This document shows, in pieces, positions 4,856 to 50,124 of a DNA stretch of 64,000 nt. This DNA is from Candidatus Cloacimonadales bacterium (lineage in GTDB: Bacteria; Cloacimonadota; Cloacimonadia; Cloacimonadales; JAFGVF01). The stretch's first letter is position 1. The number at the start of each line of letters is the position of its first letter. The DNA lies in assembly GCA_963663475.2 (NCBI GenBank), contig CAXXJV010000002.1, forward strand, positions 64,001-128,000, given 5' to 3'. The notes under the pieces are model-generated. The model was not told the DNA's origin. It made no database searches and saw only the letters and a list, made by a program, of their open reading frames with translations. The position numbers and the translations under genes were made by a program.

Positions 4856-5016
4856 TCCAAATAATGCAGTAGACCTTTGTGAATAACACTATATTCTTCT
4901 GCAAAAGTAAGATCCATAATTTTTCCGAATATATAAAATATATGCGTCAAAATTATGTAAGCTATTTTGCTAGAATAAACTGCACTCTTCACTAAAGCTC
5001 TACTACACTATCTAGG
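4856..5016 (+). mobile_element. MITE copy C (161 bp)
   Basis: TCCAAATAATGCA...TACACTATCTAGG; perfect ATAAT TSD. Confidence 0.85.
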
Positions 5017-5089
5017 ATAATACAATTTTATAAATACCTGCTACATAAATTCATAGTATCTATTATAGTCCTAGAGGAGGAAAAAGTAT

Positions 5090-5155
5090 TTGACAGAAAG
5101 TTAGTAACGGCTAACTTGTCATCAAATATTATAAAAAGTTAGTTATGTATAACTA
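5090..5155 (+). promoter_or_regulatory. Sigma70-type promoter overlapped by two 7-6-7 palindromic operator sites
   Basis: TTGACA at 5090; AAGTTAG-N6-CTAACTT at 5098-5117 and AAGTTAG-N6-ATAACTA at 5136-5155. Confidence 0.7.
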
Positions 5156-5169
5156 ATCGAGGAGATATT

Positions 5170-6186: not shown

Positions 6187-6196
6187 GAGGGAAAAA

Positions 6197-7075
6197 ATGA
6201 AGAATATTATTATTATAACATTTTTAGTCTTTGTTTTATCTTTATCAGCTGAAAGTATAAGCCTTTATCCTGTAAGTGATAATTATACAGATGTAGAGCA
6301 TGTAGGAAGTGATAATGTATTAACCGAATTATGGACAGCTAATTTTGTACCTGCAGGAAACTATCAGCGGATTAATCTTGATTTCGATATCAGTCCATAT
6401 TTGCAAAGTGGTTTTCAAAGTGGGCAGCTTAATTTAACCCGTTTCTTCTCTTGTCCGTCAAGTGGTACAACAATGATAAAAATCTACCCAATAACTCAAG
6501 TTTGGGATGAGACAAGTTGTGATATCCATCAACATCTTGATTATGAAGAAAGTATATATACTCAATATCATTTAACAGGAACTCCAGGTTCTAGTATAAA
6601 ACACTTTTCTCTTGATGTTACAGACATACTAGATGAAGTAATAAGCAGTAATATTGAATTTCATGGTTTCTTGATAAAGGCAAATGAAAATCAGAAATTT
6701 TCTAAGTTCTATTCAAAAGAGTATTCAAATGTGGATTATAGGCCTAGTTTAGACATCGTTTATTCTGGTGTGAGTAATGATATTAATCAAATCTCTCCAT
6801 CTGAACTTAAGCTTACTGTTTTCCCTAATCCATTTAATCCTACAACAAGCATAGAATTTTCTAATCCTCACTCTTTAGCTAGTCAAATTTCAATTTATAA
6901 TATTAGGGGTAGATTAGTAAAGAGAACAAGTTTGGCAGGAAGTAAGGGAAGTAAAAGTAGTTTTACTTGGAATGCTAGGAATGATAATAATGAAGAAGTG
7001 GCTTCGGGATTATACTTTTGCAGGGTGCAAGTTGGTAAGCAAGAAGAAATCAAGAAAATTATCTTACAAAAGTAG
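6197..7075 (+). CDS. Secreted DNRLRE-like domain protein with FlgD/T9SS-A-like C-terminal domain
   Basis: Start moved to ATG 6197 after GGAGG RBS; signal peptide; 'WDE', 'DVT', 'HGFLIK', 'FYSKE...RPSL'; 'FPNPFNPTTSI...SGLYF' CTD. Confidence 0.75.
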   Translation: MKNIIIITFLVFVLSLSAESISLYPVSDNYTDVEHVGSDNVLTELWTANFVPAGNYQRINLDFDISPYLQSGFQSGQLNLTRFFSCPSSGTTMIKIYPITQVWDETSCDIHQHLDYEESIYTQYHLTGTPGSSIKHFSLDVTDILDEVISSNIEFHGFLIKANENQKFSKFYSKEYSNVDYRPSLDIVYSGVSNDINQISPSELKLTVFPNPFNPTTSIEFSNPHSLASQISIYNIRGRLVKRTSLAGSKGSKSSFTWNARNDNNEEVASGLYFCRVQVGKQEEIKKIILQK

Positions 7076-7084
7076 GGGATAGAG

Positions 7085-7564
7085 ATGAAGACTTTTCTTT
7101 TTACCATACTTCTAATCATAAGTGGAGTAAACTTACATTCTCAGTCTAACAATTCTCAGCTATTAAGAGAATATTTAGCAAGCAAGTCTGATTTTCTTAG
7201 TTATGAAATAATAGAGTCTGATGATGAAGTTTACGCCACAATAATGACAAGCGATAAACAAGAAGTTTATGTATTTATTAGTAATGAATCAGAGGAGCTT
7301 AGAGGTTATCAAGGATATAATAAATTAATAGTTCAAGTTGATCATCAGCAACAAATCAAGAAGCTAGAGCTTATTAAAAGTGGAGATACAGCTTCTTTTG
7401 TGAGAAGGGTAAAAGCTAGTGATTTTCTCCAACAATTTGTGAAGTGGACAAAGGGTAAGGAAATCAGATCAGTTACTGGTGCGACCTTAACTTGCAAGTC
7501 TATAGAAGCGACCTTAGCAAATATGATTTCGAGGATTCAGGCTATTCAGTCAGATATGAATTAA
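7085..7564 (+). CDS. Secreted FMN-binding (flavinylated) domain protein
   Basis: Signal peptide; 'RGYQG', 'SVTGATLT' = [S/T]GA[S/T] ApbE flavinylation motif. Confidence 0.8.
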   Translation: MKTFLFTILLIISGVNLHSQSNNSQLLREYLASKSDFLSYEIIESDDEVYATIMTSDKQEVYVFISNESEELRGYQGYNKLIVQVDHQQQIKKLELIKSGDTASFVRRVKASDFLQQFVKWTKGKEIRSVTGATLTCKSIEATLANMISRIQAIQSDMN

Positions 7565-7624
7565 TTTATTCATTCTTAAGCAAGATAGTATTTATGTAAG
7601 CCATACACATATCCTAAAAAAAGT

Positions 7625-7655
7625 GAGGGTAGAGTTATTCCTACCCTCCATTTTT
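7625..7655. terminator. Likely bidirectional intrinsic terminator
   Basis: GAGGGTAG...CTACCCTC stem between convergent genes, A-run before and T-run after. Confidence 0.7.
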
Positions 7656-7659
7656 ACCA

Positions 7660-8157
7660 TTAATATTTAAAACTATTTTCTCCAACATTTATTTTAGAAT
7701 TAATCTTCTCTTTATTATAAAGTTTTCTAACTTCGATAAGGTTGAGCACATCATAATCATTAGAGGCCAAGAATTTTATCATCTTATGGTTATTAGGATG
7801 AACATTAATAAAAGCAGTTTCTTTGCCAAGGTCATTTGCTCTTTGATTGGCTATACTTAGCAATTGTCTAGCATATTTATTTCTTCTTGCTTCCTCAAGG
7901 ACAAATAATTGTTCAAGCCAGACAGTCTTATCAAAAACTCTTAAAATACAATAAGCTATTGCCTTATCAGCTTTATCAGCTAAATATACTTCATATTCAG
8001 AGGTAAAGTAGTCTGAAAGTTCCTCTTTAGCATCATCTCTACTATATGTAAGTTTTCTCTCCTTGAGGAGAGCTAACTCATGTCTAAAACAATAAAGTAA
8101 GCTTGCCAGGTCATCTAGTCTAGCTTCTTTACAAGTAATTTTATTAATTTTAAGCAT
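7660..8157 (-). CDS. GNAT family N-acetyltransferase
   Basis: 'LEQLFVLEEARRNKYARQLL', 'VHPNNHKMIKFL' GNAT motifs A/B. Confidence 0.85.
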   Translation of the reverse strand: MLKINKITCKEARLDDLASLLYCFRHELALLKERKLTYSRDDAKEELSDYFTSEYEVYLADKADKAIAYCILRVFDKTVWLEQLFVLEEARRNKYARQLLSIANQRANDLGKETAFINVHPNNHKMIKFLASNDYDVLNLIEVRKLYNKEKINSKINVGENSFKY

Positions 8158-8402
8158 ATTCCCACCTTATTTAATTCAATTATTAGTATTTTAGCAAGTA
8201 TGTAAAGAAAAAAAAGAAATTGAGATTTTTTTATTGACATTTTAGCTAAAGTAATTAAATTAAGAATATGATTCGAAACAAAAGGAGAAATCTGCTTGTT
8301 TGGAATAAGAATTAGAGATTATAAATCCTGAGATTAAGGTAAATACTAAATTCAAGGGATGGAGAATCAAGAGTAGATTAATTATAGGATAATTATATAT
8401 AC

Positions 8403-8430
8403 ACTCCGTCCTGAAGGCGGAGTTTTTTTT
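8403..8430 (+). terminator. Terminator-like hairpin that also sequesters the RBS of the next gene
   Basis: ACTCCGTC-CTGAA-GGCGGAGT followed by a T run and immediately ATG 8431. Confidence 0.7.
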
Positions 8431-8679
8431 ATGGAAAAAAAGGTAAGAACAGTAACAATAACAGTTCATGATAGAGAGAAATCTTTTCAACAAGTTTCAA
8501 CAATTCTCCATGATTTAGCAGATAGTATTATGTTACGGGTAGGCTATCCTATGCCTGATCAGAATATATCTATCATTTTTATTATAATCAAGTTAACAAA
8601 TGATGAACTAGGTGCTTTCACTGGCAAGTTAGGGCAAATCCCATCTGTTAATGTAAAATCAACAAGTTTAAAAATTTAA
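8431..8679 (+). CDS. TM1266 family iron-only hydrogenase system putative regulator (ACT-like)
   Basis: 82 aa; 'RVGYPM', 'FTGKLGQIPSVNVKS'; directly upstream of hydG. Confidence 0.8.
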   Translation: MEKKVRTVTITVHDREKSFQQVSTILHDLADSIMLRVGYPMPDQNISIIFIIIKLTNDELGAFTGKLGQIPSVNVKSTSLKI

Positions 8680-8703
8680 AAAAAAGATAAATAGAGGTAA
8701 AAA

Positions 8704-10116
8704 ATGGTAAAGATTGACACAAGTGGTTTAGAATCATTCATCCCAGAACAAGAGATTTTTGATATATTAGAAAAAACTAAGAATCCAAGTAAAGCTAGAG
8801 TCCAAGAGATTATTGCTAAATCTTTGGATAAAAACAGACTAAGTCCTGAAGAAACAGCAACCCTCATAAATTGTGAAGACCCAGAATTAATTCAAGAAAT
8901 ATACAAGGGAGCTAGGGCATTAAAAGAGAAAATTTATGGAAATAGAATAGTACTTTTTGCTCCTCTCTATGTTGGTAATGAATGTGTGAATGATTGTGTT
9001 TATTGTGGTTTCAGAGTCTCTAATAAAGAAACTCATAGAAATACTTTAACAATGGATCAATTAGAAGAAGAGGTTAAGGCATTAGAATCACGTGGTCATA
9101 AACGTCTGATTATGGTTTATGGTGAACACCACATGTATTCTCCTGAATTTATTCGAGATACTGTCTTAAAAACTTATGAAACTAAAGAAGGAAAGGGTGA
9201 AATCAGAAGGGTTAATATTAATGCTGCTCCCTTAGATGTTGAAGGTTTCAAGACTGTAAAGTCTGCTGGAATTGGGACATATCAGATTTTCCAAGAAACT
9301 TATCATCAAGAATCATATAAGAAATTCCATCCAACAGGACCTAAGAGTAATTATTTATGGCGTTTATATGGTTTAGATAGGGCTATGCAAGCTGGTATTG
9401 ATGATTTAGGTATTGGAGCTTTGATGGGGCTATATGATTGGCGTTTCGAGGTAATGGGACTTCTTTACCATACTATTCATTTAGAAAAAACCTTTAATAT
9501 AGGACCTCACACTATCTCTTTCCCAAGAATTGAACCTGCAAATAACACAGAGATAACCGAGCAACCTCCTTATGCAGTGTCCGATGATGATTTTAAGAAA
9601 TTAGTTGCCATTCTACGTTTAGCAGTTCCTTATACAGGCTTAATTCTTACTGCTCGTGAACCAATTGCCATCAGAAATGAAGTTATTGCTTTTGGCGTTT
9701 CTCAGATTGATGCAGGTTCTAGCATTGGTATTGGAGATTATTCTCATAAAGATGAGGAGTCTTTCAAGAAAAGTCAGTTTGTTTTAGGCGATCAAAGGTC
9801 TTTAGATGATGTAATAAAAGAACTAGCTACACATGGTTTCCTCCCTTCATTCTGTACAGCATGCTATCGTTTAGGTAGAACAGGTGAACACTTTATGGAG
9901 TTTGCTATACCTGGATTTGTTAAGAAATTCTGTACTCCTAATGCTATTTTAACTGTTTCAGAGTATGTGCATGATTATGGTACAGCAGATACAATTAAAG
10001 CAGTTAACGAACAGATTAACAAAGAAATTGAAGAAATGGAAGATGAAAAGATAAAGATAGAGCTAAAGGAAAAGTTAGCTAGGGTAGCTAAGGGAGAACG
10101 TGACCTTTACTTCTAA
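8704..10116 (+). CDS. hydG: [FeFe]-hydrogenase H-cluster radical SAM maturase HydG
   Basis: 'FAPLY', CxxxCxxC (CVNDCVYC), 'FQETYH', C-terminal CxxC-x22-C (CTAC...FCTPNA) which ThiH lacks; ends 'GERDLYF'. Confidence 0.93.
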   Translation: MVKIDTSGLESFIPEQEIFDILEKTKNPSKARVQEIIAKSLDKNRLSPEETATLINCEDPELIQEIYKGARALKEKIYGNRIVLFAPLYVGNECVNDCVYCGFRVSNKETHRNTLTMDQLEEEVKALESRGHKRLIMVYGEHHMYSPEFIRDTVLKTYETKEGKGEIRRVNINAAPLDVEGFKTVKSAGIGTYQIFQETYHQESYKKFHPTGPKSNYLWRLYGLDRAMQAGIDDLGIGALMGLYDWRFEVMGLLYHTIHLEKTFNIGPHTISFPRIEPANNTEITEQPPYAVSDDDFKKLVAILRLAVPYTGLILTAREPIAIRNEVIAFGVSQIDAGSSIGIGDYSHKDEESFKKSQFVLGDQRSLDDVIKELATHGFLPSFCTACYRLGRTGEHFMEFAIPGFVKKFCTPNAILTVSEYVHDYGTADTIKAVNEQINKEIEEMEDEKIKIELKEKLARVAKGERDLYF

Positions 10117-37063: not shown

Positions 37064-39184
37064 TTATTTGAGCAAGAGAGCTTTTTTAATAACTTCCTGT
37101 TTATCAGATTTATATTTAAAGAAGTAGATACCGGAAGCAACTCTTGTTCGTCTTTGATTTCTACCATCCCAAACAATTTTCTCCTGGTCAATATTATGAT
37201 AAGTTTTTACTATCTGTCCTTTGATATTGTAGATAATAAGCTGATTATTATTACTATCAATAGGAAGTTTGAGAGTAACTTCTGGATTAAAGGGATTAGG
37301 GTAAAGTAACATATCAGTTAAAGAGGCTTGGCTATCAGTCTCATTACTAAGAGCTTGCAATTCAAGAGGACCTAAATCTAAACCACCATTAAAAAATCTA
37401 CTATTCCCCATTATATCAAGTTGGGGAACTTGTAATTGATAGGGGATATCACTAGTCGCAGAATCAATAATTTCGGGGTTAAGACTAAAGTTATAGATTC
37501 CGTTATCATCAATCTCAAAAGCAAGTTCATTTACAAATATATTGTTTAATCCAAAAGAAAAATCCAAAGCATTGAATCTAGTATGATAGGCTTTAGCTGA
37601 AAATAATTGATTATCCATGAAGAAGTTATCAATATTCTGATAAATAATATTATTATAAATAATAGCTTTTGAAATATAAGTTTCAATTATTCCAGTTGAG
37701 TGGAAATCATCAGTATTCAAGACTTCATTATTACAGATAGTATTGTTTATAATTCTGGGATTTGAATAATTTATTAAAGCAAAAGAGCCTCCTAGCTCTG
37801 CTTTATTATCATTAACCTGATTGTTAATAAATGAAATATTAGAATCTTTATTTAAGGCTAAAACGCTTCCATAGTTGGCATAATTATATCTAAAAATCGA
37901 ATTTTCTATTCTTATTTTATCGAAATCATAGACATTGAAAACAGCTCCCGCATCAGTAAAAGAACTTTGCTGGTTAGCAAGAGCTTTTGCATATTCAAAA
38001 ATAGCATATTGAAAAAGTGAAGCTTGGTTACTATCATTAGTCTGGTTATATTTAAAACCATTCCAACATCCTGCTAAATCATTATCATAAGTAAAAAGAT
38101 AAGGGTCTGCTGCTGTGAAAGTAATTCTCTCATCAGCATTTCCTTGAGCAAGAAGAGTGCCTTGGACATCAATATGATAAAATTCATTAAAACTAATATT
38201 AGCTCCTGGAGAAAAAGCTAAAGTTACACCATTTTCTATTAGAACATTATCAGTAACTTGGATATCCAAAGAAGTTAAAAGTAGAGATTCAGAGATGGTT
38301 CCAGACAAAGTAGTCCTATCATCAGGAGTTAAATCTCTTTTATGTTTATTTTCTGATGTATATAGCTTACCAGTATCAAAAGTTTGGCATCCATATCCTA
38401 TAGCTGGGCTATTAGCCTGTAAAGTATAGTCTCCATTTACAGGGTCAGTTAATAATGGATCTAGCATAGAAATATTATTATAAGAGCTGGCATCCTGCCA
38501 AGTAGCTGGAGCAACTCAGCCATAGTCACAGAAAAGGCCATAATGATTCATAGCTATTTCATTAGCCCGCCAATCACTAAAATAAGACCAATTATCTGAA
38601 ACAGTAGGTGGCCCATAAGTCTCAATAAAAATTGTAGAGACAAGGTTATGGCCAGTTGGTAGCCATTCAAGACTTTCACTTGTATAATTAACAAAATCAT
38701 CACCAGTTGAATATGTATCTACAAAGATGTTATTAGTAATAGAAATACCTTGTCCTGCTGAATGAATTCTAACTGCATAATCTTCAGCATGATAAAAGGT
38801 TACGTGGCTTACAGATCCTTGAGGTATAAGATTAGTCCCTTCTGTAGAACCCCTAAATTTTACACCACCATTAATTATTACGCAGTCACTAATATCTAAT
38901 CTTTTATCAGTATATTGAATAGTGATAAAGCCTCCCTGTAAATCAAGGATAGCACCATTACCTATAATATTCACATTAGCACCCAAGGTATCTGTAAAGG
39001 TTCCAGGAATATGGTTATAGAGACCTCCAATAAGCAAAGAGCCTGTATAGACTTGGCCAGTATTTAGAATCAGCACTTTGTCATAAAGAGCTGTACCCTC
39101 AGCGTTATCATAAACTTCTTTTAAGCTTGTTCCATTTAGCAGAACAGCTAATATTAATAGCATTGTAGTTAGATATATTTTCAT
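37064..39184 (-). CDS. Candidate selenoprotein: secreted parallel beta-helix protein with FlgD/T9SS-A-like CTD, 706 aa with in-frame TGA at codon 223 (38516-38518)
   Basis: The two track ORFs share a frame and are joined by TGA plus 16 sense codons (VAPATWQDASSYNNIS). Only the first has a signal peptide and only the second has the CTD. SECIS-like hairpin follows the TGA. Confidence 0.7.
38484..38515 (-). promoter_or_regulatory. Putative bacterial SECIS element
   Basis: UGA-GUUGCUCCAGCUACU-UGGCA-GGA-UGCCA-GCUC: G-led apical loop about 20 nt after the UGA, GC-rich in an AT-rich gene. Confidence 0.6.
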
Positions 39185-39193: not shown

Positions 39194-39721
39194 CTATTTC
39201 ATTAAATGTATCTTGCGTATTTTAGAATATCCTTGAGGAGAAGATACTTTGTAAAAATATATTCCGCTATGACAAGTATTCCCCTCATTGTCTTTTCCAT
39301 CCCAATCTAAGCTATGATGTCCTTGAGAAAACTCTTTCTTAACTAGATCCCTTACTAAATGGCCTTTCATATCATAAATCTTTACTTCTATTAAAGCACT
39401 TTTAGGAAGAGAAAAATAAATGTTAGCTTCAGGACTAAAAGGATTTGGATAATAAGCCTCATTAGATATTATATTTTCTTTGTATTCAGCTTCTTGGAGT
39501 AACTCAGTCTTCCTACTAACATCTACAATATCTAGGGTATCGGATATAGTAGTTGAATCAATGTTACTTTTGGCAGAGTATATGTTTAAACTATCAGGAG
39601 AAACTGAGTTAGTAGATGTTAAAGAAGAATAATATCTCATGGAAGTAAAAGAATTATCTTTACAAGCAATAAGGTAGAATATTATAAATAATGCTAAACC
39701 AAGTATAAGTGCTTTTTTCAT
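39194..39721 (-). CDS. Lipoprotein consisting mostly of a FlgD/T9SS-A-like domain
   Basis: MKK start after GGAG; 'LIAC' lipobox; 'YPNPFSPEANI...WDGKD...SGIYFY'. Confidence 0.75.
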   Translation of the reverse strand: MKKALILGLALFIIFYLIACKDNSFTSMRYYSSLTSTNSVSPDSLNIYSAKSNIDSTTISDTLDIVDVSRKTELLQEAEYKENIISNEAYYPNPFSPEANIYFSLPKSALIEVKIYDMKGHLVRDLVKKEFSQGHHSLDWDGKDNEGNTCHSGIYFYKVSSPQGYSKIRKIHLMK

Positions 39722-39800
39722 TATAACTCCTTTTTTATAAGACAAGCAAGTAAGGTAAGAGTCAGCAAATCTACTTTAGATGTTATAAGAATCTCTTATT

Positions 39801-40973
39801 TTATTTAATCTTAATCTGTTTAATTACTGTCACTTCTCCCAGTGAATTTTCAAACTTAAATAAATAAATTCCACTAGAGAAATTAGTAAGCTTAAGATTT
39901 GAAGTTTTAGAGGAGTTTACTCGGGAAGAATATATCTTTTGTCCTTTAATATTATAAATACTTATTTTCTCGATTAGATTTTTTGAAGAAAAATTAACTT
40001 CATCAATAAAAGGATTAGGATAAAGAGAAACAATAAAATCATTAGCAATAACATCATTATCTGAGTTATTAACTACTTCTTCATAATTATAATCGTATTT
40101 ATAGGAGTTGTTCCATATTTGATTTTCATTATCCCATAACTTGGATATAAGCTGGCTAGTATTCAAATTATCATTATAGTAATACTGGTAGTTATCATAG
40201 TATTGCCATTGATTATCAGCAAAAGTTATCCCTTCAGTGTAATTTATAAGGCCATTTGTATCGTAAGTATGATTATATTGAAGATAACTTAGCCAAGTTG
40301 TTTCAGACCATGATTGCCAGTCTTCATGAATAATTGAACCACTATCATTACGCTGATAAATACCTTTAATATAGTTGTTCCAGTTAACATCATCAGTTGA
40401 GTAAGTCCAAGTCTCAACTTCTACTCTCCCTTGACTATCATATTCATAAGCTACATCATAAATAGCATCAATTTCTTTGGCTGAAGAGAAGTAAGTCCAT
40501 TCTTCATTAATAAGAAAACCCTCATTATCATAGATATAATCAATATGTAAATATGGTTGCCAAGTGTCATTAGACCAGAAGTCTTGCTGATAAGTAAGAA
40601 TTAAATCTTCTTCATTATATGTATAAGTTTCTTGTTGATAATTTATCCAACCATTATCATAAATTTGATAGATTTCTTGAAGTATTCTATCTTCTTGGTA
40701 AGTATAAATATAATTTTCAATTTCTAACCAGTTATCTTCTATATTTTGCTTTACAAGTACAGATTCTAAGCTTGCATCTTGATAGCTATATTCAGCTTTA
40801 TAAGTTTCAATAAAATCATAAGTTAAGCTATCAGCTAGACTATAGATATAACTTACAAGGTGGTCATCTCTAAGAGGTGATTTATGCTTAATTTCTGGTT
40901 TTTTTAGTATATTAAGACTCCACAGAGAAGTCATAAGAAATATAATAAACAAGAAGAGGGAAAGTTTCTTCAT
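39801..40973 (-). CDS. Secreted protein with W/Y-rich beta-hairpin repeats and T9SS-A-like CTD
   Basis: Signal peptide; about 7 'W.....Y.Y....' repeats; 'LYPNPF...SGIYLF'. Confidence 0.75.
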   Translation of the reverse strand: MKKLSLFLFIIFLMTSLWSLNILKKPEIKHKSPLRDDHLVSYIYSLADSLTYDFIETYKAEYSYQDASLESVLVKQNIEDNWLEIENYIYTYQEDRILQEIYQIYDNGWINYQQETYTYNEEDLILTYQQDFWSNDTWQPYLHIDYIYDNEGFLINEEWTYFSSAKEIDAIYDVAYEYDSQGRVEVETWTYSTDDVNWNNYIKGIYQRNDSGSIIHEDWQSWSETTWLSYLQYNHTYDTNGLINYTEGITFADNQWQYYDNYQYYYNDNLNTSQLISKLWDNENQIWNNSYKYDYNYEEVVNNSDNDVIANDFIVSLYPNPFIDEVNFSSKNLIEKISIYNIKGQKIYSSRVNSSKTSNLKLTNFSSGIYLFKFENSLGEVTVIKQIKIK

Positions 40974-41902
40974 TAGTTTTCTCCAACATTTTTTTCTATA
41001 ATAAAACGACCTTGATTATTGACAAGTAAAATTATACAATTACCAAAGATAGTATATTGGTCAGGATTATTTAATTCTTCATCATAATGGAATATTAGCT
41101 GGCTTCCATTAGGAAGAATCTGCTTCACAAGTAAATTAGCTGAGTCTAAATCAGCTTCTACAGGTATATATAATATAGGGTAGAGGTCTTGTCCTGGATT
41201 GTTTATTACCATATTGAAAGATACAGGGAAATCACTGAGTTTGAGGTCATATTCTGCTAAAAAAGATGAAGTTTTTCTCTCTAAAGTGATTTGAGAAACT
41301 CCTAGAGGAAGTAAATTTCTCGGAAGAATAAACTGGGCTTGATAAAGAGATAAATTAATGTCATCAGTATCAGCAGGATCAATGACTAAAGTAACTGAAC
41401 TCGTAGCTTCATTTTCATAAAGTGTTTGATAAAATCCACTATCACTGAGGATAAAATAACAAAAGTCATTCTCTAAGTATGCTCCGAAACCATTAATACT
41501 ATCAGACTTTGGATAAGGATAAAAACGTGAGTAAGCACCTTGATACTTAAGACCTAAATAAGTGAAATCATCTGTTGGAATAGCAATTATCGGTGTAAAA
41601 TCAGAAGTTGTTACTAGGTCATTTTCCTTATTAATTAGTTCAATTAGATAAGAATAGGAAGTATTAGTGAAGTTGTAAAAATCAGCAATAAAGGAAAAAT
41701 CATTACTTTCTCTTAGCTGAACTCTTATTAACAAAGAATCATTCTCTGTTGGGTATATTCCTTCAGAAGTAATATAGATAGCTTGATCTATTAAATCAAA
41801 AGGAGATAGACCAGCAGGTAAGCTCTCATCTTCTCTAAGATTACAGCCTATAAACAAGAAGGAAATTAGACTTAATAAAAGAAATCTAAAATACATATCC
41901 AA
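40973..41902 (-). CDS. Hypothetical lipoprotein
   Basis: 'LFIGC' lipobox; overlaps both neighbours. Confidence 0.65.
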   Translation of the reverse strand: MDMYFRFLLLSLISFLFIGCNLREDESLPAGLSPFDLIDQAIYITSEGIYPTENDSLLIRVQLRESNDFSFIADFYNFTNTSYSYLIELINKENDLVTTSDFTPIIAIPTDDFTYLGLKYQGAYSRFYPYPKSDSINGFGAYLENDFCYFILSDSGFYQTLYENEATSSVTLVIDPADTDDINLSLYQAQFILPRNLLPLGVSQITLERKTSSFLAEYDLKLSDFPVSFNMVINNPGQDLYPILYIPVEADLDSANLLVKQILPNGSQLIFHYDEELNNPDQYTIFGNCIILLVNNQGRFIIEKNVGEN

Positions 41903-43064
41903 ATCCTAAGCTATAAGAATTTCTTTCATAATCTTCATTTGCATAACCTATAAGTAATGTATAATCACTCAAGCTTATTAGCCAAGTAATAGCTTGCTTT
42001 ATCTTAGCGATATCATAATTATCATAAGGCATTAAATACTTGTTATAAGCAAAATTACTTTGACCTAATGTTAGATCATAAGAAAAAGAAATATTGTAAA
42101 TAGGTTGATAAGTAAGATTAGCATGATAGAGAAGGTCTTCTTTATCATAATCAGGAGTAATGTAATCTAAATATAGGTAACTTACACCACATGCAATATC
42201 AATTTGAGAAAAATCTAGCATATAATTTGCTCTTATTTCTTGGGCAGATAATGATTCATAGTAAGAATAACCTGTCATTAAGGACAAGTTATTATGAAAA
42301 TATAGACTAGGAATGATATAAGAAGATTGCATAGCTATACCATAAGCATCATATAATTTCTTAAAATCCCCTTTAGCTGAAAAACAAGCTAATTTGAAAG
42401 TTAATTTTTTATAATTAATAGCTGTTTGTAGGCTAATCAAATCTCTTTTAGCATTATCTCCAGAATTATGATTCCAGTTTATCCCTAGAGAATATTGACC
42501 TTTAATCCAATTATAGGATAAATTTGTATTATAAGTAGCATTGGCTTTACTTGTTGCTAAGAAAATACTATTACTTCTCCAATTATCTTCTAAATATTCA
42601 AGTGATAAAGTATCATTATTTACCTTTAGAAGCTTTAAATCTGGATAAGCTAGACCTGAATTCCCTATAAAATATGCAGACCAGCCTCTTCCTAAAAGAT
42701 CTAAATCTGAATTATTTGCCTGCTTACTAGCTTTATTATAATAGAAATAAGCAGGATAATACTTAGCTAGCATATAATATGAATAGGCTAAGTTTCTATA
42801 ATATCTAGCATCATCACATTGATAATTCTTACTAAAATCAATAACTTCTTTGAATTTCTCTTGATAAAGTAAACTCGAACTTAATCCTATTAATACTTCC
42901 TTTTCCTGATTACCAGAATCTATTAAATCTTGATAAAGATATTCAGAAATAATATAATAACCTAAATCAAAGTTTCTTTTTGCTTCTTCTAAACTAGTGG
43001 AAAAGAGAGAAATAAAAGAGAATACAAAAAAAAGAAAGCAATATCTACTTAAGTTTACTCTCAT
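41886..43064 (-). CDS. TPR-containing putative outer-membrane beta-barrel protein
   Basis: Signal peptide, N-terminal TPR-like helices, alternating beta-strands, terminal 'LGFGYVF'. Confidence 0.65.
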   Translation of the reverse strand: MRVNLSRYCFLFFVFSFISLFSTSLEEAKRNFDLGYYIISEYLYQDLIDSGNQEKEVLIGLSSSLLYQEKFKEVIDFSKNYQCDDARYYRNLAYSYYMLAKYYPAYFYYNKASKQANNSDLDLLGRGWSAYFIGNSGLAYPDLKLLKVNNDTLSLEYLEDNWRSNSIFLATSKANATYNTNLSYNWIKGQYSLGINWNHNSGDNAKRDLISLQTAINYKKLTFKLACFSAKGDFKKLYDAYGIAMQSSYIIPSLYFHNNLSLMTGYSYYESLSAQEIRANYMLDFSQIDIACGVSYLYLDYITPDYDKEDLLYHANLTYQPIYNISFSYDLTLGQSNFAYNKYLMPYDNYDIAKIKQAITWLISLSDYTLLIGYANEDYERNSYSLGFGYVF

Positions 43065-43653
43065 ACATCTCTATAAATTCATTACTTGGATTCATCTTTT
43101 TTAATTTCTGAAAAACACTTTTAGCTTTATTAATCTGATTAGATTCAACTAAAGAACTCAAGTAATATCCTAAACAAGATATGTTATATGAGTAAATATC
43201 ACAGGCCTGTTGATAATAGCTAGCTGCATTTTGCCAGTCTTGAAGAGCATAATAGGAATAAGCAATTTTGGCTAAAGTTAAAAAACTCTGGGGATTTATA
43301 CTTATAACCTGTTTACCATACTCAATAGTTTCTTGCCAGTTACCAAGCATATAGTTTGACACTACAATTCCTTCTAGTGCTTCTAAATTATTATCTAGAT
43401 TATAACTTACTGTATAATATTTCAAAGCATCTGTATAGTTATAAAGGGAATAATACAACCAGGCAGTACGTAAATTATAATAAGCATCTGATGGGGCTAA
43501 ATGAGTAACTGCAAACATATTTGTTAAGGCTTGCTGATAATTGCCATTATTTTCATATTCGTAAGACTTTTCTACTAACTCATCAACTTTTGTTCCTGCT
43601 AATAATAGGGAACTGAAAACTAATACCAAGATTATAAGAATTGATTTTTTCAT
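43045..43653 (-). CDS. Secreted tetratricopeptide-repeat protein
   Basis: Signal peptide MKKSILIIL...; repeated 'AWLYY..Y..AL..Y' / 'AYSYY...W..AA..Y' TPRs. Confidence 0.8.
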   Translation of the reverse strand: MKKSILIILVLVFSSLLLAGTKVDELVEKSYEYENNGNYQQALTNMFAVTHLAPSDAYYNLRTAWLYYSLYNYTDALKYYTVSYNLDNNLEALEGIVVSNYMLGNWQETIEYGKQVISINPQSFLTLAKIAYSYYALQDWQNAASYYQQACDIYSYNISCLGYYLSSLVESNQINKAKSVFQKLKKMNPSNEFIEMYESKLK

Positions 43654-43654
43654 T

Positions 43655-45814
43655 TTATTCCTCAATTAATTCTACTTTCATTATTTCTGTATTACCATCA
43701 TTTAAGGTAATTTTGGTAATACCTATTAAATCTTTGATCTCAACTCTTCCATTAAAAGATCTTATTCTTTTCCCCATTATATTAAGTTCTGTTTGTGTGG
43801 CAACAATAATTGTCTTGTCTTCCATACTAACCCTTGATTTACTCCTAACAGTTGAAACTTTACCTAATGATTGAAGTAAGATTAAGGTGTTTTCCCAGAA
43901 AGGATTAAGAACTATTGAATATGGCGGTAAATCTTGCCATTCTAAACCTTCATCTTCTTGATAAAGGGGAAGTCTACTCATTAAAATTGCTAAGGCTTGA
44001 AGTCCACTCTTTTTATTACCTTTAAAATCTAATACATTAAATATTCCATCATAAACAGAAAATTCAAGACTAGTCTTCTTGTCAGATTTAATATAGAATC
44101 TTCCTAGTAAGTCAACTTCAACAGTCCATTTCTCAACAAAGGTCTCATTTCCGTAGCTGACTTTAAAAGATGAGGTATCTTCAACTTTCAGATGCAACAA
44201 ATCTTGTAGATAATTAACAGGGATTAAAGCAGAAATTAGGTCATCTTTTTCAGGTATTGCATAAGCATTAAAGGAGAGCTTATCCTCTCTTTTTTTATAG
44301 TTCAAGAGGTTAGATTTAATAGTTTGACTACCTGGTTCTGCTCCTCTTTGAATATTAAAATGAAGGTGGGGAACAGCTGATCTTCCAGAATTACCTACTA
44401 AAGCAATTTTCTCACCTTTAGCTATCCATTCTCCTTTTTTAACTTTAATAGTTCCTTTTTTAATATGACAATACATAGAATATATACCAAATCCGTGGTT
44501 TAGTACAACAAAGTTACCCCAGTTTTCTCTTGTATTAATCTGGCCAATTGGATTATCTTCAATACCATCAATATAATTAGCTACCCAGCCAGCAGCAGAG
44601 GCTAAGATAGGCTTACCATAACAATAAAAATCTTTGGTACTTTGGCCATCTCCCCTGTACTTACTTCCTTGTTCATCAGTAATTTCAAAGTCCCATGCAT
44701 AAGCCCATTGTTCTCGATGGGTAATTTCTCCATGGTTACCTTGAGTAACTTTCCATTCTCCCACAAAAGGAAGATAGAATTGAAGTCCATCAGCTTGATA
44801 AAATCTCCTAATTTTTGAGTAATAATATTTTAAATTATCTTCAGGTATAAAGATGCCAAAGTTAGCAATGTTTGGGTGTTTATTTTGTAGTCTTAAACGT
44901 AAAGCAATAACTATAACCATAACTGTAATGTTCATAGGAAAGGCATAAGGAGCTACATAATAATTCTCGAATAAAAACTGGAAGGCATAAGTTATGATAA
45001 AACCAAGGATACAGGAAAAACCAGCTATAATGTATGATGCTAAGGAAGGTATAAAAAATACACCACCAATACTGATTGCAATTAACATCAGATTTAAGGC
45101 TGTATAGGATATTTGGTATAAACCAATCGTTTCTAAGTAAGCAGTATTAAAGATTGATACAAAGTAGAAGGATATTCCAAAACCCATTAAGGAAAGGAAA
45201 AAACCAATTCTAGAGGTAAGAATTAAGGCTAAAGCAATTAGTAAGCCGGACAGGATATAGGGTGTGAAAAAGATAGAACCTAATGATTGCAAGTAATAGG
45301 TTATAATATTTGTTTCCATAAACTCATTACCCAAGACTATGAACCTATCTTGAACACTTGTTACTTGACCAATTCTCATAATAAAGAAGGAGAAAAGGAT
45401 TGCCACGATAGAAAAAGATATACTCATAGAGGGCATATTCAGATAAGTTGTAGTAAGATAATTTAAGGTAATGAATAAGAGTAAGGTTATAACAGATGAA
45501 CCAAATAATACTAGCCAATAGGATGAAGTCCAGAAGAGTTCATTAGGCATAAAGAAGCCTATCCCTAGAGAAATAAGCATTGAATTAAAGCCATGAATTC
45601 CGCTTCTTGATGTCCAGTCTTCAAAAGAGAGAATTCTTGCAAACAAGATAGCAATCAGAGCTCCCAAGATACCTGTGAGGCCTGTTAATGGTTCGACTAA
45701 TGTTGCTAAAAGAATAAATAAGCCTACCTCTATCTTCTCACTGAAAAGAATAGAGGAGTAGGCATTTATTATTGATAATCCAAGGTTTTTTAGATTATTA
45801 AAGAAACTTGTCAC
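43655..45814 (-). CDS. Urea-transporter-family membrane domain fused to an M23 peptidase domain
   Basis: 'GIHGFNSML', 'LGSIFF', 'YAFPMN' UT-like TMs; 'H...AWDF', 'GNFVV', 'GNSGRSAVPHLHF' M23 motifs. Confidence 0.8.
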   Translation of the reverse strand: MTSFFNNLKNLGLSIINAYSSILFSEKIEVGLFILLATLVEPLTGLTGILGALIAILFARILSFEDWTSRSGIHGFNSMLISLGIGFFMPNELFWTSSYWLVLFGSSVITLLLFITLNYLTTTYLNMPSMSISFSIVAILFSFFIMRIGQVTSVQDRFIVLGNEFMETNIITYYLQSLGSIFFTPYILSGLLIALALILTSRIGFFLSLMGFGISFYFVSIFNTAYLETIGLYQISYTALNLMLIAISIGGVFFIPSLASYIIAGFSCILGFIITYAFQFLFENYYVAPYAFPMNITVMVIVIALRLRLQNKHPNIANFGIFIPEDNLKYYYSKIRRFYQADGLQFYLPFVGEWKVTQGNHGEITHREQWAYAWDFEITDEQGSKYRGDGQSTKDFYCYGKPILASAAGWVANYIDGIEDNPIGQINTRENWGNFVVLNHGFGIYSMYCHIKKGTIKVKKGEWIAKGEKIALVGNSGRSAVPHLHFNIQRGAEPGSQTIKSNLLNYKKREDKLSFNAYAIPEKDDLISALIPVNYLQDLLHLKVEDTSSFKVSYGNETFVEKWTVEVDLLGRFYIKSDKKTSLEFSVYDGIFNVLDFKGNKKSGLQALAILMSRLPLYQEDEGLEWQDLPPYSIVLNPFWENTLILLQSLGKVSTVRSKSRVSMEDKTIIVATQTELNIMGKRIRSFNGRVEIKDLIGITKITLNDGNTEIMKVELIEE

Positions 45815-47166
45815 TAGATTATCCTTAAGTATTCAGGTATTTTTTCTCTAGAATTAATATCGCTTAATCCTTCTCTTTCTCTGATTAGGTTAGTCTGACC
45901 AGTTTCAGAAATCAAACAAACACCAGGTCTATATTCAATGAATTGCATCCATTGAGTAACATTATAAGCACCAACAGGGAATACTATCAGTTGGTCACCA
46001 ATCTTCAAATCAGGATATGGGGTTGAATGTTTAACAATATCAATGTTCATACATAAAGGCCCATAGAATATAGTAGGCATAGAAGAACCAGAAATTGGTT
46101 GGGCTGGAAGGATTTTAAGGTTATACCACCAAGTAGTGAAGAGGATATTAACACCTGCATCTATTACAACAGCTCTTTCCCCAGTTGGTAAGTCTCTTTT
46201 TCCAATAACTTGGGTAATGAGAGTACCTGCTTCATCAACTAAAACTCTACCAGTTTCTAAGATTAGGCGAGGTTCTTCATCTTTGGCAAATTCTGATTCA
46301 TTAAAAGCTTTACCTATAGCAGTAGCATACTGGTCGAAAGAAGGAGAAGAAAACTCACCTGGAGTATATTGATTGTGGAGAGTATTTTTAGAAGCAAATC
46401 CTCCACCTAAGTCAATATATTTTACAACTATATCAAAGTTATCTTTTACTTTTTGGGCAAGAGTTAAGAGTTTTGAAGCTGAGATATAGTAAGGGTTAGC
46501 ATCAAGCATAAAAGTTCCAATATGGGCATGGAGGCCAATTAAATCCATTTTATTACCTTGAATTAATCTTTGCAAAGTTCTATAGGCTTCTCCGTTATCA
46601 TAGTTGAAACCAAATCTTTGCCATTGAGGATAAATACCCGTATCCATATTTACCCTTATTGCTACTTGTGGACGAATAGCTAACTCATCAGCAACTTCTT
46701 CTAGCATAATAAGTTCATGAAAATGATCAATATGAATTGTTACTCCATCTTCAACCACTCTTAGTAAATCATCTTTACGTTTGCCAGGACCATTGAATAT
46801 AATATCTTTGCCTTCAATACCTAGGTGCTTAGCCATTTCGTATTCCATAATAGAAACTACTTCTGCTTTAGCTCCTTCTTGGTGGAAAATAGAGCAGATT
46901 GCTCCTAGATAATTTGTTTTATAAGACCATGATACTTCGCTATTACTATAAAATTGTTTTAGAATAGAAGTTAACTCGCGATAAGAGTCTCTAATTTTTG
47001 CTTCAGAATAAACAAATAAAGGAGAACCGTATTTTTCTGTTAAAGATTTAACTGGAACACCAGCAATTCTATCTTGGAAGTTGATGGCATTTTTGTTATG
47101 TGCTATTTTATTACTCAACCCTGATTGATTTCTTAATATTCTAGGTGGATTATATTGTTTTTTCAT
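45814..47166 (-). CDS. Fold-type III PLP-dependent decarboxylase (LysA/Orn-DAP-Arg family)
   Basis: 'YGSPLFVY', PLP lysine 'SYKTN', 'FNGPGK', 'HAHIG', 'DLGGG', 'ETGR', 'GPLCMNID', 'VGAY'. Confidence 0.85.
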   Translation of the reverse strand: MKKQYNPPRILRNQSGLSNKIAHNKNAINFQDRIAGVPVKSLTEKYGSPLFVYSEAKIRDSYRELTSILKQFYSNSEVSWSYKTNYLGAICSIFHQEGAKAEVVSIMEYEMAKHLGIEGKDIIFNGPGKRKDDLLRVVEDGVTIHIDHFHELIMLEEVADELAIRPQVAIRVNMDTGIYPQWQRFGFNYDNGEAYRTLQRLIQGNKMDLIGLHAHIGTFMLDANPYYISASKLLTLAQKVKDNFDIVVKYIDLGGGFASKNTLHNQYTPGEFSSPSFDQYATAIGKAFNESEFAKDEEPRLILETGRVLVDEAGTLITQVIGKRDLPTGERAVVIDAGVNILFTTWWYNLKILPAQPISGSSMPTIFYGPLCMNIDIVKHSTPYPDLKIGDQLIVFPVGAYNVTQWMQFIEYRPGVCLISETGQTNLIREREGLSDINSREKIPEYLRII

Positions 47167-48236
47167 TTCTTTTCTCCTCTGATTAGTTGTCCCATAGCTG
47201 ACAAAAGTCCCATTTCATTGATGTCAGCAATAATATCTTCTGCATGCCTAATAAACATGGTTCCTGTTTTGTATTCTGTAAATGGTTGAACCTCTTCTTT
47301 AAGAGCTAATTTAACCACCATAGCAGGTAAGTTTTGTCCTGCTCCTTCAGCTAGTCTAATCCAAGCAGGGAAACGAGGATTAATTTCAATTAAGTAGAAG
47401 TTATCCTTGCTATCTTTAATTAATTCTAGTTCACAAGGTCCCTGCCATTTTAAAGCTGAGATAACGTTTTGGGTGAATTCATTTAGTTTTTTGTTATTAA
47501 CTACAACCCCTCCAAAACCTTTACCTTTATCAGTAATGATAAGTTTTCTTTGAGGTATCATCCCTAAAATATTACCTTGTCCATCACCTACTAAAGATAC
47601 ATTAAATTCATCTCCCACTACTTTTTGCTGGGCTAGTACAGGAAGTCCCCATTTCTCTCTAATTAAGTTGAAATAATAGATTGCTTCGTTGATATTATTA
47701 GCTTGATAAGCTTCATATAAATTACCTTTGATGAAGAGAGGAAATTTAATTTCTTTTTCTAAGTCAAAGATTTTACTGGCATCTACTAAAAATTCTGTTT
47801 TAGGAACATCTATACCTTTTTCAGGGAAGGTTTTAAATATTTTTGCCTTATCTCGGAGAAGTAATTGGTCTTCGCTGGGAAGATAAGTTTTTATACCTCT
47901 AGCAGCTAGTTCTTTAGCTAGTCTTATATAGCCAATAATTTCTGAATCTAGAGTTGGGATAAGGACATCAATCTTGGTATGAGATAGAATATAGTCAATT
48001 CTATTTAGAATAGCATCCTTTCCTTCCGAAGGGTAAGGCATTTGGTAAACTTCTTGTGCTAGGTCAGGATAGTAGATACCTGATTCTAAATTGTCATAGA
48101 TTAGACCTACTATTTTTCCTTTGAAACCTGCATTTCTAATTGATCTAATGATAGGAACACCAGGTTGTGGATTATCGCCTGTCTTTAGACCAGAGACAGC
48201 TATAACCAAATCAGAGTGGTCTAATTTAATAGACAT
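47163..48236 (-). CDS. ATP-grasp domain ligase (small CarB-like)
   Basis: 'IPTLDSE', 'DK', 'FPLFIKG', 'YLIEINPRFPAW'. Confidence 0.85.
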   Translation of the reverse strand: MSIKLDHSDLVIAVSGLKTGDNPQPGVPIIRSIRNAGFKGKIVGLIYDNLESGIYYPDLAQEVYQMPYPSEGKDAILNRIDYILSHTKIDVLIPTLDSEIIGYIRLAKELAARGIKTYLPSEDQLLLRDKAKIFKTFPEKGIDVPKTEFLVDASKIFDLEKEIKFPLFIKGNLYEAYQANNINEAIYYFNLIREKWGLPVLAQQKVVGDEFNVSLVGDGQGNILGMIPQRKLIITDKGKGFGGVVVNNKKLNEFTQNVISALKWQGPCELELIKDSKDNFYLIEINPRFPAWIRLAEGAGQNLPAMVVKLALKEEVQPFTEYKTGTMFIRHAEDIIADINEMGLLSAMGQLIRGEKK

Positions 48237-48486
48237 GGCTACGTTCCACAAGATTGTAATTTTCTAATACACGCATAAAATACTCAATGTCGGAAATAGC
48301 TTCATCTCTGTTAACTTCATACTCTTGTACTAAAGCATTAACTAATTCTTCCATATCTGAACCTGCTATAATTTGATTGATTATCCAAATAGCAGTTTCA
48401 TTAGCATTATAAGAATAACCTGTTGTCGGATCAAAGATAAAGCCACTTTGATTAATTGCTAAGTCTGTTAGTTTTTCTTTATTCAT
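48226..48486 (-). CDS. PqqD family / RiPP recognition element (RRE)-like protein
   Basis: 86 aa; 'GFIFDPTTGYSYNANETAIWI...LVQEYEV...DIEYF...L...NLV'. Confidence 0.85.
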   Translation of the reverse strand: MNKEKLTDLAINQSGFIFDPTTGYSYNANETAIWIINQIIAGSDMEELVNALVQEYEVNRDEAISDIEYFMRVLENYNLVERSHVY

Positions 48487-48589
48487 AATAAACCTTCTTT
48501 TGTTTATTTTTATTTTAAGACTATTAAGACTTATATTCCCTGCAATTTATTTTCCAAAAAGTGAATTTTATTATTTTTCTTCCTTTTAA

Positions 48590-48611
48590 CCCAAATAATG
48601 CACTATTCGGG
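48590..48611. mobile_element. Minimal 22-bp MITE derivative (ends only)
   Basis: CCCAAATAATGCACTATTCGGG flanked by a perfect TTTAA direct repeat. Confidence 0.75.
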
Positions 48612-48612
48612 T

Positions 48613-50124
48613 TTAATACTTCAGTTTTTGTCCAGGATAAATTAAAATCAAACCATTTTTATTCTTTTTTAAATTGTTTTTGGAAATAAGAAGTTTCTGA
48701 CTAACCTTGAGCTTGGAGGAAATACCAGAAATTGAATCACCTTTTTGCACTGTATAACTACCTTTACTAGAACCTGCATTACCATAGAGTTTTAACTTTT
48801 GGCCAGGTCTAATCATATTAGAAGTCATACCATTAAGCTCTTTAATTTTGGCCACACTTGTTTTATATTTTCTAGCAATATTGTAGAGATTATCACCTCT
48901 TTTCACCACATGATGGGTAAAGAAACCAGCATTGCTATTGAGGAATTGCTTTTCAATTTCAGCAACTTTCAGACTATCAGGAACTGCTTCAATAGGAACT
49001 AAAATATTATGAATACCTGCAGGTAAGACAACATCATTAATGTCAGAATATTTCTTTCTACTCTGACGATATATCTTAATCCATGGGTTTAGCTCGTATA
49101 CAGAACCAATATTAGTTCCTTGAGCCTTAGCCCATTCATCAAGCTTATAGTGTCCTTTTAAGGTAATTGGAATTACTTTAGTTGTTTGAAGCATATCTGG
49201 TTCTCTGTCAAATTTAGAACCAAAAATCTTTTCTTCATTCTCAAAAATATATTTAATGGCAATGGCTTTCCAAACATATTCATTTGTTTCTTGAGTTCTA
49301 AAGACTAAATCAGTGAATTTACTACCTCCTTGAGCTTGGAGAACCTTATTAACATTCCCCATACCTGCATTATAGGCACAGTAGGCTAAAAGCCAATCTT
49401 CAGCTCCCTTATTTGAGAAGTACCTATAGGTATCATTGAGTAATTGAGCAGCTACTTGTGTGGATTTATAAATATCGCGTCTTTCATCAACAAAATCATT
49501 TATCAGCATTTTGTAATGTTTTCCAGTATTGGGCATGATTTGCCAGATACCATCAGCCCCCATAGGAGAATGAGCTCTATAACTTAATCTACTTTCAGCA
49601 ATAGCTAGATATTTAGTGTCTGTTGGCACACCTGCTTGAGTAAAAATTGAATCCATTAAGGAAAAATAACGTCCTGACCTAGGGATGAATCTGACAGCAG
49701 ATTTGACTTCACTATTATAAGCTTTTTCAAATCTTTCTAGGTTTCTCTCAATAGTTAAATCAATAGTTTGGCCAGCAAAATCGATTTGGCGAGGAAAACC
49801 AAGGTCTGTAATAACAATATTATCTTTGTATCTGCTTATCTCAAAAATCAAAGAATCAATCAAGGCTTCTTTGTCAGCTAGTTCTAGATAAAGAGAATCA
49901 ATAGTAGTTTGATACTTGAATATTTTCTGATCAAATTCAATGTTTGTGATATCATCAGATTGAATTTCCTCTGAATCTTGTGAGTAGTTATCACTATTGA
50001 TATAGTCGTTTTTATTACTAGTTTCCTGAATATTTTCTGAACTTTCATTCAAGGGAATAAAAGAACTACAGCCACTTAAAAGAAAGACAAAGATTAGTCT
50101 ATATATTAATTTTAACAATTTCAT
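48613..50124 (-). CDS. MltD-like lytic transglycosylase lipoprotein with two LysM domains
   Basis: 'LLSGC' lipobox; 'YLAIAES', 'GIWQIM', 'AYNAG', 'ETNEYV'; LysM 'HVVKRGDNLYNIA', 'YTVQKGDSI'. Confidence 0.88.
   Translation of the reverse strand: MKLLKLIYRLIFVFLLSGCSSFIPLNESSENIQETSNKNDYINSDNYSQDSEEIQSDDITNIEFDQKIFKYQTTIDSLYLELADKEALIDSLIFEISRYKDNIVITDLGFPRQIDFAGQTIDLTIERNLERFEKAYNSEVKSAVRFIPRSGRYFSLMDSIFTQAGVPTDTKYLAIAESRLSYRAHSPMGADGIWQIMPNTGKHYKMLINDFVDERRDIYKSTQVAAQLLNDTYRYFSNKGAEDWLLAYCAYNAGMGNVNKVLQAQGGSKFTDLVFRTQETNEYVWKAIAIKYIFENEEKIFGSKFDREPDMLQTTKVIPITLKGHYKLDEWAKAQGTNIGSVYELNPWIKIYRQSRKKYSDINDVVLPAGIHNILVPIEAVPDSLKVAEIEKQFLNSNAGFFTHHVVKRGDNLYNIARKYKTSVAKIKELNGMTSNMIRPGQKLKLYGNAGSSKGSYTVQKGDSISGISSKLKVSQKLLISKNNLKKNKNGLILIYPGQKLKY

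Follow-up and report, generated by a model that had tools for sequence, protein, structure and literature searches.

A widespread, undescribed operon core joins a lasso-B1-type RRE protein, an ATP-grasp ligase, a FigC-like decarboxylase and a urea-transporter–M23 fusion in Cloacimonadales and other phyla

Several described systems resemble parts of a gene cassette present in a 64,000-nucleotide stretch of a Candidatus Cloacimonadales bacterium (contig CAXXJV010000002.1, positions 64,001 to 128,000), referred to below as the window, whose own numbering is used throughout. In the rhizoferrin route (FigA/FigC, or FslA/FslC in Francisella), as with SbnH and AcsE, an ATP-dependent ligation that forms an amide through a side chain is followed by a decarboxylase of the alanine-racemase fold, and the cassette encodes candidates for both steps. 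The account of FigC in PMC7857480 gives N-acylated ornithine as the substrate of FigC/FslC and places FigC, SbnH, AcsE, MccE and BtrK in a clade acting in specialised metabolism on amino acids tethered to a larger moiety; BtrK, according to the same source, acts on the 87-aa carrier BtrI. The butirosin module BtrI/BtrJ/BtrK shares with the cassette an ATP-grasp ligase and a related decarboxylase dependent on pyridoxal 5'-phosphate (PLP), the butirosin pair acting on a tethered glutamate. Lasso-peptide machinery, made up of the B1 RiPP (ribosomally synthesised and post-translationally modified peptide) recognition element (RRE), the B2 leader peptidase, the C lactam synthetase and the D exporter, parallels it in combining an adaptor, a peptidase, an ATP-dependent amide former and a membrane exit. 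The urea transporters (UTs) dvUT, Yut and UT-A/UT-B have the complete fold found in the fourth core protein, and the fusion of a UT to an M23 peptidase is listed in PMC12998343 as a bacterial domain combination, in an entry that assigns it no function.

The core of the cassette is a widespread and undescribed operon at positions 43655 to 48486, and it belongs to none of the LysA, FslC, lasso, butirosin-module or classic RiPP-cluster groups. No description of it was found in the literature searched, which did not extend to subscription papers, and no characterised pathway there matched it, in line with the novelty that the earlier note had proposed. All of its genes lie on the minus strand: a PqqD-family RRE protein of 86 aa (48226..48486), an ATP-grasp ligase of 362 aa (47163..48251, with an ATG at 48236 as a possible start), a FigC/FslC-like PLP decarboxylase of 450 aa (45814..47166) and a UT-M23 fusion of 719 aa (43655..45814). 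These open reading frames (ORFs) overlap successively by 26, 4 and 1 nt according to their coordinates, the first overlap shrinking to 11 nt if the ligase starts at the later ATG. The earlier note had presented the locus as four coupled genes; the ORF limits and overlaps are exact, but the coupled unit is longer than that, since four further overlapping genes join it, namely those of a tetratricopeptide-repeat (TPR) protein (overlap of 11 nt), an outer-membrane barrel-like protein (20 nt), a lipoprotein-like protein (17 nt) and a protein with a secretion-type tail (1 nt). We read the locus tentatively, at somewhat below an even chance, as a conserved, envelope-spanning biosynthesis and export cassette, in which the ligase and the decarboxylase would build a product, the RRE would dock on the decarboxylase tail, the UT-M23 protein would release the product, and the downstream proteins would handle it in the envelope.

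The gene order is conserved over a large phylogenetic distance. A scan for relatives of the ligase, with one genome per species, gave at least 536 loci, of which 80 were kept and compared together with 10 loci from relatives of the present genome (90 in all). The 80 kept loci come from Cloacimonadota, Bacteroidota, Ignavibacteriota, Chlorobiota, Myxococcota, WOR-3 and Thermodesulfobacteriota, and include one from a cultured carrier, Lutibacter sp. B1 (Bacteroidota; locus L094). The order PqqD, ligase, decarboxylase, UT-M23 was kept in all 10 loci fetched from relatives. Among the 90 loci, the decarboxylase came next after the ligase wherever there was room for it (78/78), and the fusion followed in 72 of 73. 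With tblastn, a TPR protein was located behind the fusion in 58 of 68 loci, and four of the ten misses carry a TPR ORF by clustering, which placed one after the fusion in 24 of 27 loci. Of the 91 sources, 67 yielded a PqqD-like ORF. Because of the conserved core order, the TPR protein and the related barrels found across phyla, the locus is described as a six-gene, envelope-spanning cassette, the distribution of which is patchy yet very wide: a full ligase orthologue is present in 18 of the 41 genomes of the order (own genome counted) and in 26 of 301 genomes in an even sample of Bacteroidota. The sole locus without the fusion, L093 (Bacteroidales; 4703-9748), has the PqqD, ligase and decarboxylase genes followed by a haloacid dehalogenase-type acid phosphatase, a leucine-rich-repeat protein and two DDE transposases; considered as an informative variant, it was set aside as a rearrangement in which transposases cut the cassette. 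In the relative G013 (L023:9170-10612), an insertion of about 1.8 kb encoding a 480-aa ORF splits the ATP-grasp gene. That ORF is taken for a transposase, and the cassette there is probably dead.

The decarboxylase is a PLP enzyme of the alanine-racemase fold. Pfam assigns it Orn_Arg_deC_N (3e-32) and Orn_DAP_Arg_deC (9.5e-12), and its closest solved relative is FigC (7kh2, E 2.8e-56), followed by LysA (1twi, 2.2e-41) and BtrK (5e-30). It stays below the cut-offs of both the lysA model (TIGR01048; 222 bits against 297.9, and 221.6 in the genome search) and the FslC model (NF041039; 224.7 bits against 500). In the aligned active-site loop (residues 369-376; 46039..46062, minus strand), the cassette enzyme reads GPLCMNID, where FigC has GPSCMQHD and LysA of M. 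jannaschii has GGLCESSD. This motif is invariant in 27/27 cassette decarboxylases, and so is the stretch around the PLP lysine. Cys-Met is common to the cassette enzyme and FigC/FslC, where LysA has Cys-Glu, and the changed specificity position reported in the earlier note is thereby borne out. [quoted passage not shown]

In this genome, which is 99% complete and in which DapA and DapF but not LysA score above their cut-offs, the same enzyme is the best lysA-model match, as would be consistent with a diaminopimelate decarboxylase clustered here incidentally, a possibility already raised in the earlier note. The score below the cut-off and the invariant Cys-Met argue against it, as does the strict synteny across phyla. 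Moreover, three of the five carriers searched (G041, G042 and G043, all of other phyla) hold a separate LysA (378, 336 and 406 bits) beside cassette copies that reach only 201, 223 and 236 bits on the same model. Within the order, LysA over the cut-off was found in 1 of 41 genomes, and 22 of the 23 genomes lacking a full ligase orthologue likewise lack it; the lack therefore characterises the order, whether or not the cassette is present, and these bacteria look like lysine auxotrophs in which diaminopimelate is still made for the wall. A LysA role for the cassette enzyme is, on this evidence, barely credible. The only other lysA-model match in the genome (G000) lies outside the window (L002:1453-2613, G000:C1); it is a 386-aa decarboxylase of the ornithine decarboxylase type with the motif GPTCDSQD and a score of 189.5 bits.

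In comparison with the rhizoferrin route, the cassette has an ATP-grasp enzyme and not an NRPS-independent siderophore (NIS) synthetase, none of which was found in the nine proteins scanned, and it comes without a siderophore receptor or major facilitator superfamily exporter, adding instead the RRE, the UT-M23 fusion and the TPR/barrel pair. The ligase itself matches ATPgrasp_Ter (1e-10) and ATP-grasp_3 (1.9e-5) in Pfam. In NCBIfam it is PRK12767-like, with scores under the cut-offs, no subfamily cut-off being reached. Its structure model has a predicted local distance difference test (pLDDT) value of 90, and the Foldseek neighbours are biotin carboxylases, 2pn1 and L-amino-acid ligases, with E of about 1e-19 to 1e-17, the value for biotin carboxylase and 2pn1 being 2e-19. 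Residues E289, N291 and R293 are invariant in 37 sequences, and the predicted fold together with these Mg-ATP residues places the protein in the ATP-grasp superfamily. The butirosin module, which likewise has an ATP-grasp ligase, differs in that no carrier domain is found in the cassette proteins with Pfam, the 86-aa partner being a PqqD/RRE protein and not an acyl carrier protein (ACP), and in that the cassette has no aminoglycoside context.

The RRE protein matches Pfam PF05402 (E 5.7e-12; 46.2 bits against a cut-off of 23.4). A profile of 25 PqqD homologues found TbiB1 (1e-13) and TfuB1 (8e-10), versus 0.03 for PqqD itself, so that by its closest solved relatives the RRE is of the lasso-B1 type. 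An RRE of this peptide-binding kind suits an ordinary RRE-dependent RiPP with its precursor encoded elsewhere, the ligase and decarboxylase tailoring the peptide and the M23 domain removing the leader, and the joining of a peptidase to a membrane protein recalls leader-peptidase exporters. The search for a precursor was negative at every scale covered. Across the 91 sources, which come from several phyla, there was no conserved ORF of 12-120 aa in the cassette gaps or in the 600 bp upstream, nor, on either strand up to 8 kb away, one of 15-90 aa, genes in trans lying outside this search; all that these hunts brought up was the PqqD gene, the ends of adjacent genes and shadow frames of conserved ones. 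The spacer 5' of the PqqD gene (126 bp, 48487-48612) likewise holds no ORF conserved in other loci, in agreement with the earlier note, which had seen no precursor ORF upstream of the RRE. Besides the missing small ORF, three points speak against a precursor in trans: a PLP decarboxylase requires a free alpha-amino acid, and a residue inside a peptide chain is not one; a folded peptide would not fit through the narrow UT pore; and the leader-like motif of the locus sits on the decarboxylase. Such a RiPP is distinctly unlikely.

That motif lies in the N-terminal tail of the decarboxylase (residues 1-22; 47101..47166, minus strand), which reads Y5-x-x-P8-x-I10 ... N19-K20-I21-A22. LysA homology begins near residue 35, and the motif therefore sits in an N-terminal extension. 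All 27 of 27 cassette decarboxylases have the pattern Y..P.[LIVM] within their first 45 aa; the other four core families lack it altogether, and among 405 further ORFs 6 have it. From the tail Tyr to [NG]K[FYIV][GA] the distance is 14 in all 27 enzymes, and the most divergent copy (L022) has the same motif and spacing. Lasso leaders carry YxxPxL at -17 to -12, as described in PMC10368454; if the tail Tyr is numbered -17, position +1 is the conserved Gly/Ala and -2 the conserved Lys. The decarboxylase tail has the motif and spacing of a lasso leader, with Lys at -2. Given the lasso-B1-type RRE, this leader-like tail and the absence of a conserved precursor ORF, the RRE probably grips the decarboxylase's own tail rather than a separate precursor. 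The precursor that the earlier note had not seen is, on this view, probably not missing. Besides the B1-type RRE and the YxxPx[ILV] spacing to G/A that it shares with lasso machinery, the cassette differs from it in several respects: by Pfam, M23 takes the place of the transglutaminase-like Cys protease and an ATP-grasp enzyme that of the asparagine-synthetase homologue, the leader sits on an enzyme rather than on a precursor peptide and has Lys at -2, and a decarboxylase is added. A co-fold of PqqD with the ATP-grasp protein (score 0.13, mark 0.32) weighs neither way.

The same geometry could be read more literally, the decarboxylase tail itself being the substrate or carrier that the RRE presents. 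M23 would then cut at the lasso-like -1/+1 position before Gly/Ala, or the Lys at -2 would be used, and the ligase and decarboxylase would build on that amine in the manner of BtrJ/BtrK on BtrI, with M23 releasing the product at the channel. In favour of this, G/A is found at Y+17 in 27/27 decarboxylases and the preceding N-K is at least 95% conserved, the leaders of PMC10368454 have the same register, BtrK is related to the decarboxylase (5e-30), and neither an ACP nor another carrier is encoded in the cassette according to Pfam. M23 enzymes, for their part, favour bonds beside Gly. Against it, an enzyme tail serving as a stoichiometric carrier would be unusual, and a lasso-like closure would need an Asp/Glu at ring distance, which the tail lacks; we regard this version as unlikely, though with a real minority chance. 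A fosfazinomycin preprint (PMC13622209) describes peptide-scaffolded assembly involving an ATP-grasp enzyme, for the cassette a parallel in concept only.

The last core gene encodes three domains in succession. The membrane part (residues 15-304; 44903..45772, minus strand) matches the Pfam UT family (PF03253) with 131.3 bits against a gathering threshold of 25 (E 5.3e-38) and aligns end to end with dvUT (3k3f, E 6e-7). It is a full UT domain without an additional helix, and beyond residue 309 there is no hydrophobic segment. The domain reaches 60.3 bits on the yut equivalog (TIGR03441), where the cut-off is 274.6. Apart from this weak similarity (E 6e-7 to dvUT), it differs from described urea transporters in an altered signature and the absence of a urease context from the cassette. 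The M23 domain (about residues 342-525; 44240..44791, minus strand) was detected with Pfam Peptidase_M23 at residues 399-493 (E 4.4e-18). In a model of residues 330-719 with pLDDT of 91.8, VIA-align gave Z of 14.7-12 to DipM, Csd, EnvC, LytM and lysostaphin, DipM aligning over 134 residues with a root-mean-square deviation (rmsd) of 4.6. H366, D375, H450, H483 and H485 are invariant in 25 sequences and the HxH motif is present, with an H-to-D spacing of 9, unlike the usual HxxxD; by predicted fold and metal ligands the domain is an M23 peptidase. The model also has a C-terminal open beta-barrel (residues 534-719; 43658..44215, minus strand), poorly conserved in sequence, with fold resemblance only to the putative lipoprotein 4fvs (Z 10.0; 161 aligned, rmsd 4.2), ApoB/vitellogenin barrels (Z 10-9.8) and LolA (Z 7.7-6.9). 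A match of the C-terminal 221 residues to BrxC_BrxD (Pfam, 0.026) was rejected as being at chance level.

In solved UTs both termini are cytoplasmic. The 43 residues after the last membrane helix hold 4-10 Lys/Arg in 25/25 homologues, and other UT fusions listed in PMC12998343 carry ankyrin or EF-hand modules at the C-terminus. Since the UT domain is complete, its linker rich in Lys/Arg, the ends of UTs cytoplasmic and other UT fusions likewise C-terminal, the M23 and barrel domains would lie in the cytoplasm. Such a placement argues against a role as a direct cell-wall hydrolase. Within the linker (residues 305-333; 44815-44901), Pro324 and Glu325 are invariant and the consensus is SPExNLYxxxNRxxRF; the stretch may be a docking site.

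Downstream of the fusion, the cassette continues with envelope proteins. The TPR protein (43045..43665, minus strand; 206 aa) has a signal peptide and matches TPR_2 (5.9e-14) among other Pfam TPR families. The next protein (41886..43064, minus strand; 392 aa) is barrel-like with a TPR-like N-terminus, its signal peptide and terminal aromatic residue being read from the sequence. Proteins at this place differ by phylum yet are related according to hhalign (clusters c6/c7 93.7%, c6/c11 90.3% and c7/c11 79.6%). Atlas neighbours of the 392-aa protein carry TPR+YaiO (score 0.96), a label that Pfam does not confirm, and in five barrel proteins hmmscan at E up to 1 found neither YaiO (PF19413) nor another Pfam barrel family. 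AlgK/AlgE, PgaA and BcsC are known export pairs of a TPR and an outer-membrane barrel. As in these pairs, genes for a periplasmic TPR protein and for a barrel fronted by TPRs come after that of an inner-membrane component; unlike them, the cassette lacks a glycosyltransferase synthase, and its barrels match no Pfam barrel family.

Another reading is that the cassette modifies the envelope itself. ATP-grasp enzymes such as Ddl and D-aspartate ligase add amino acids to wall precursors, and the ligase could analogously add an amino acid to a cytoplasmic wall or lipid-linked precursor, from which the decarboxylase would make an amine; M23 and the C-terminal barrel would then handle the stem peptide or lipid carrier, and the TPR and outer-membrane proteins would bind the modified wall. 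The M23 domain has, indeed, a peptidoglycan-peptidase fold, the C-terminal domain resembles lipid/lipoprotein carriers, and an MltD-like gene adjoins the cassette in the genus. That neighbour, however, is kept in close relatives only, the distribution in Bacteroidota is patchy (the 26/301 above), Pfam finds no flippase or glycosyltransferase in the cassette, and a lasso-type RRE would be left unexplained. We consider envelope or peptidoglycan modification very unlikely. The MltD-like lytic transglycosylase, with two LysM domains, lies at 48613-50124 on the same strand, 126 bp upstream of the PqqD gene, and is kept in L015, L024, L025 and L043.

From the observed genes, their order and conservation, the family and fold assignments and the tail motif, together with family chemistry and cassette anatomy, we infer the chemical steps, the docking, the topology and the export route as follows. 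The cassette probably makes and exports an amine-bearing compound. In the cytoplasm, the ATP-grasp enzyme would tether an amino acid by forming an amide with its side chain, and the FigC/BtrK-like decarboxylase would strip the alpha-carboxylate of the tethered amino acid to leave an amine-bearing amide. The lasso-B1-type PqqD protein would grip the YxxPx[ILV] tail of the decarboxylase, so that the enzymes could assemble at the inner face of the UT-like channel. There, the channel-fused zinc M23 domain would cut an amide bond, either for product release or for tail processing. The product may leave through the UT-like pore, the TPR protein and outer-membrane barrel handling the envelope stage. 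The sequence of ligation, decarboxylation and UT-M23 cleavage or export that the earlier note had envisaged fits this anatomy, its chemistry being conjectural throughout.

Several observations weigh against the tentative reading as a biosynthesis and export cassette. Sequence and fold searches with the ligase gave generic ATP-grasp neighbours only and no clue to a substrate. The UT signature is altered, with a first motif LPxLSxPF and a second that could not be placed in register, and the UT pore is narrow. M23 enzymes are normally extracytoplasmic, and a periplasmic location would better suit a C-terminal barrel that resembles periplasmic lipid/lipoprotein carriers. The tail has Lys at -2, where lasso leaders usually have Thr, and it could belong to the decarboxylase's own fold. 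With DapA and DapF encoded and LysA above the cut-off absent, the genome by itself leaves room for a LysA role. A bolder construction, which we consider highly improbable, would make the cassette a lasso-like machine of unrelated parts producing a linear polyamide on the amine freed when M23 cuts the RRE-presented decarboxylase tail before the conserved Gly/Ala, and exporting it via the UT-like pore. Repeated cycles would add a side-chain-linked amino acid and then remove its carboxylate, as BtrJ/BtrK do twice; the unbranched, uncharged amide chain would thread the urea-channel-like pore, whose filter would suit planar amides, and the TPR protein and outer-membrane barrel would pass the chain on as in synthase-dependent polymer export.

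The two last genes of the coupled unit vary more. The lipoprotein-like protein (40973..41902, minus strand; 309 aa) is a lineage-specific add-on without a Pfam family, related to parts of the approximately 900-aa proteins found at the same place in other Cloacimonadota (cluster c9). The final gene (39801..40973, minus strand; 390 aa) encodes a protein with a C-terminal tail of the type IX secretion system (T9SS) kind, a label given to the tail by eye, and clusters by this tail with other secreted proteins (c5). Proteins with secretion-type tails flank the cassette at 37064-38467, 39194-39745 and 39801-40973, and in 11 loci belonging to other phyla the PqqD gene is immediately preceded by a gene for such a protein, the named tail-bearing loci being L058, L060, L065, L067-L070, L073 and L086, where adjacency by chance is possible. 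As a functional link this adjacency was set aside, such genes being, in our own expectation and uncounted, numerous. Scans for promoters and terminators gave 76 sites where shuffling predicts 65.1, and 5 where it predicts 5.1; being no better than shuffled sequence, they were not used. In a marine-sediment metatranscriptome library (X1), eight contig pieces from a close relative fall over 43459-48184, seven of the eight at least 95% alike; they span the decarboxylase, most of the ligase and parts of the fusion, and one contig of 1466 nt bridges the fusion/decarboxylase junction. Such contigs record presence in the RNA library and are no proof of transcription, the uncovered intervals 41800-43416 and 48268-48700 being uninformative.

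Carriers of the cassette are common in sediments, digesters and guts, and genome-mining tools that demand a precursor would miss it. Cultured Lutibacter sp. B1 makes the question directly testable. If the tentative reading is right, an RRE acting as an enzyme-docking adaptor and not as a precursor chaperone would be new, and so would a biosynthetic pathway whose exit is a urea-channel fold bearing a cytoplasmic M23 peptidase. Also new would then be an amine-bearing metabolite or polymer produced by hundreds of species of Bacteroidota, Ignavibacteriota, Cloacimonadota and other diderms.

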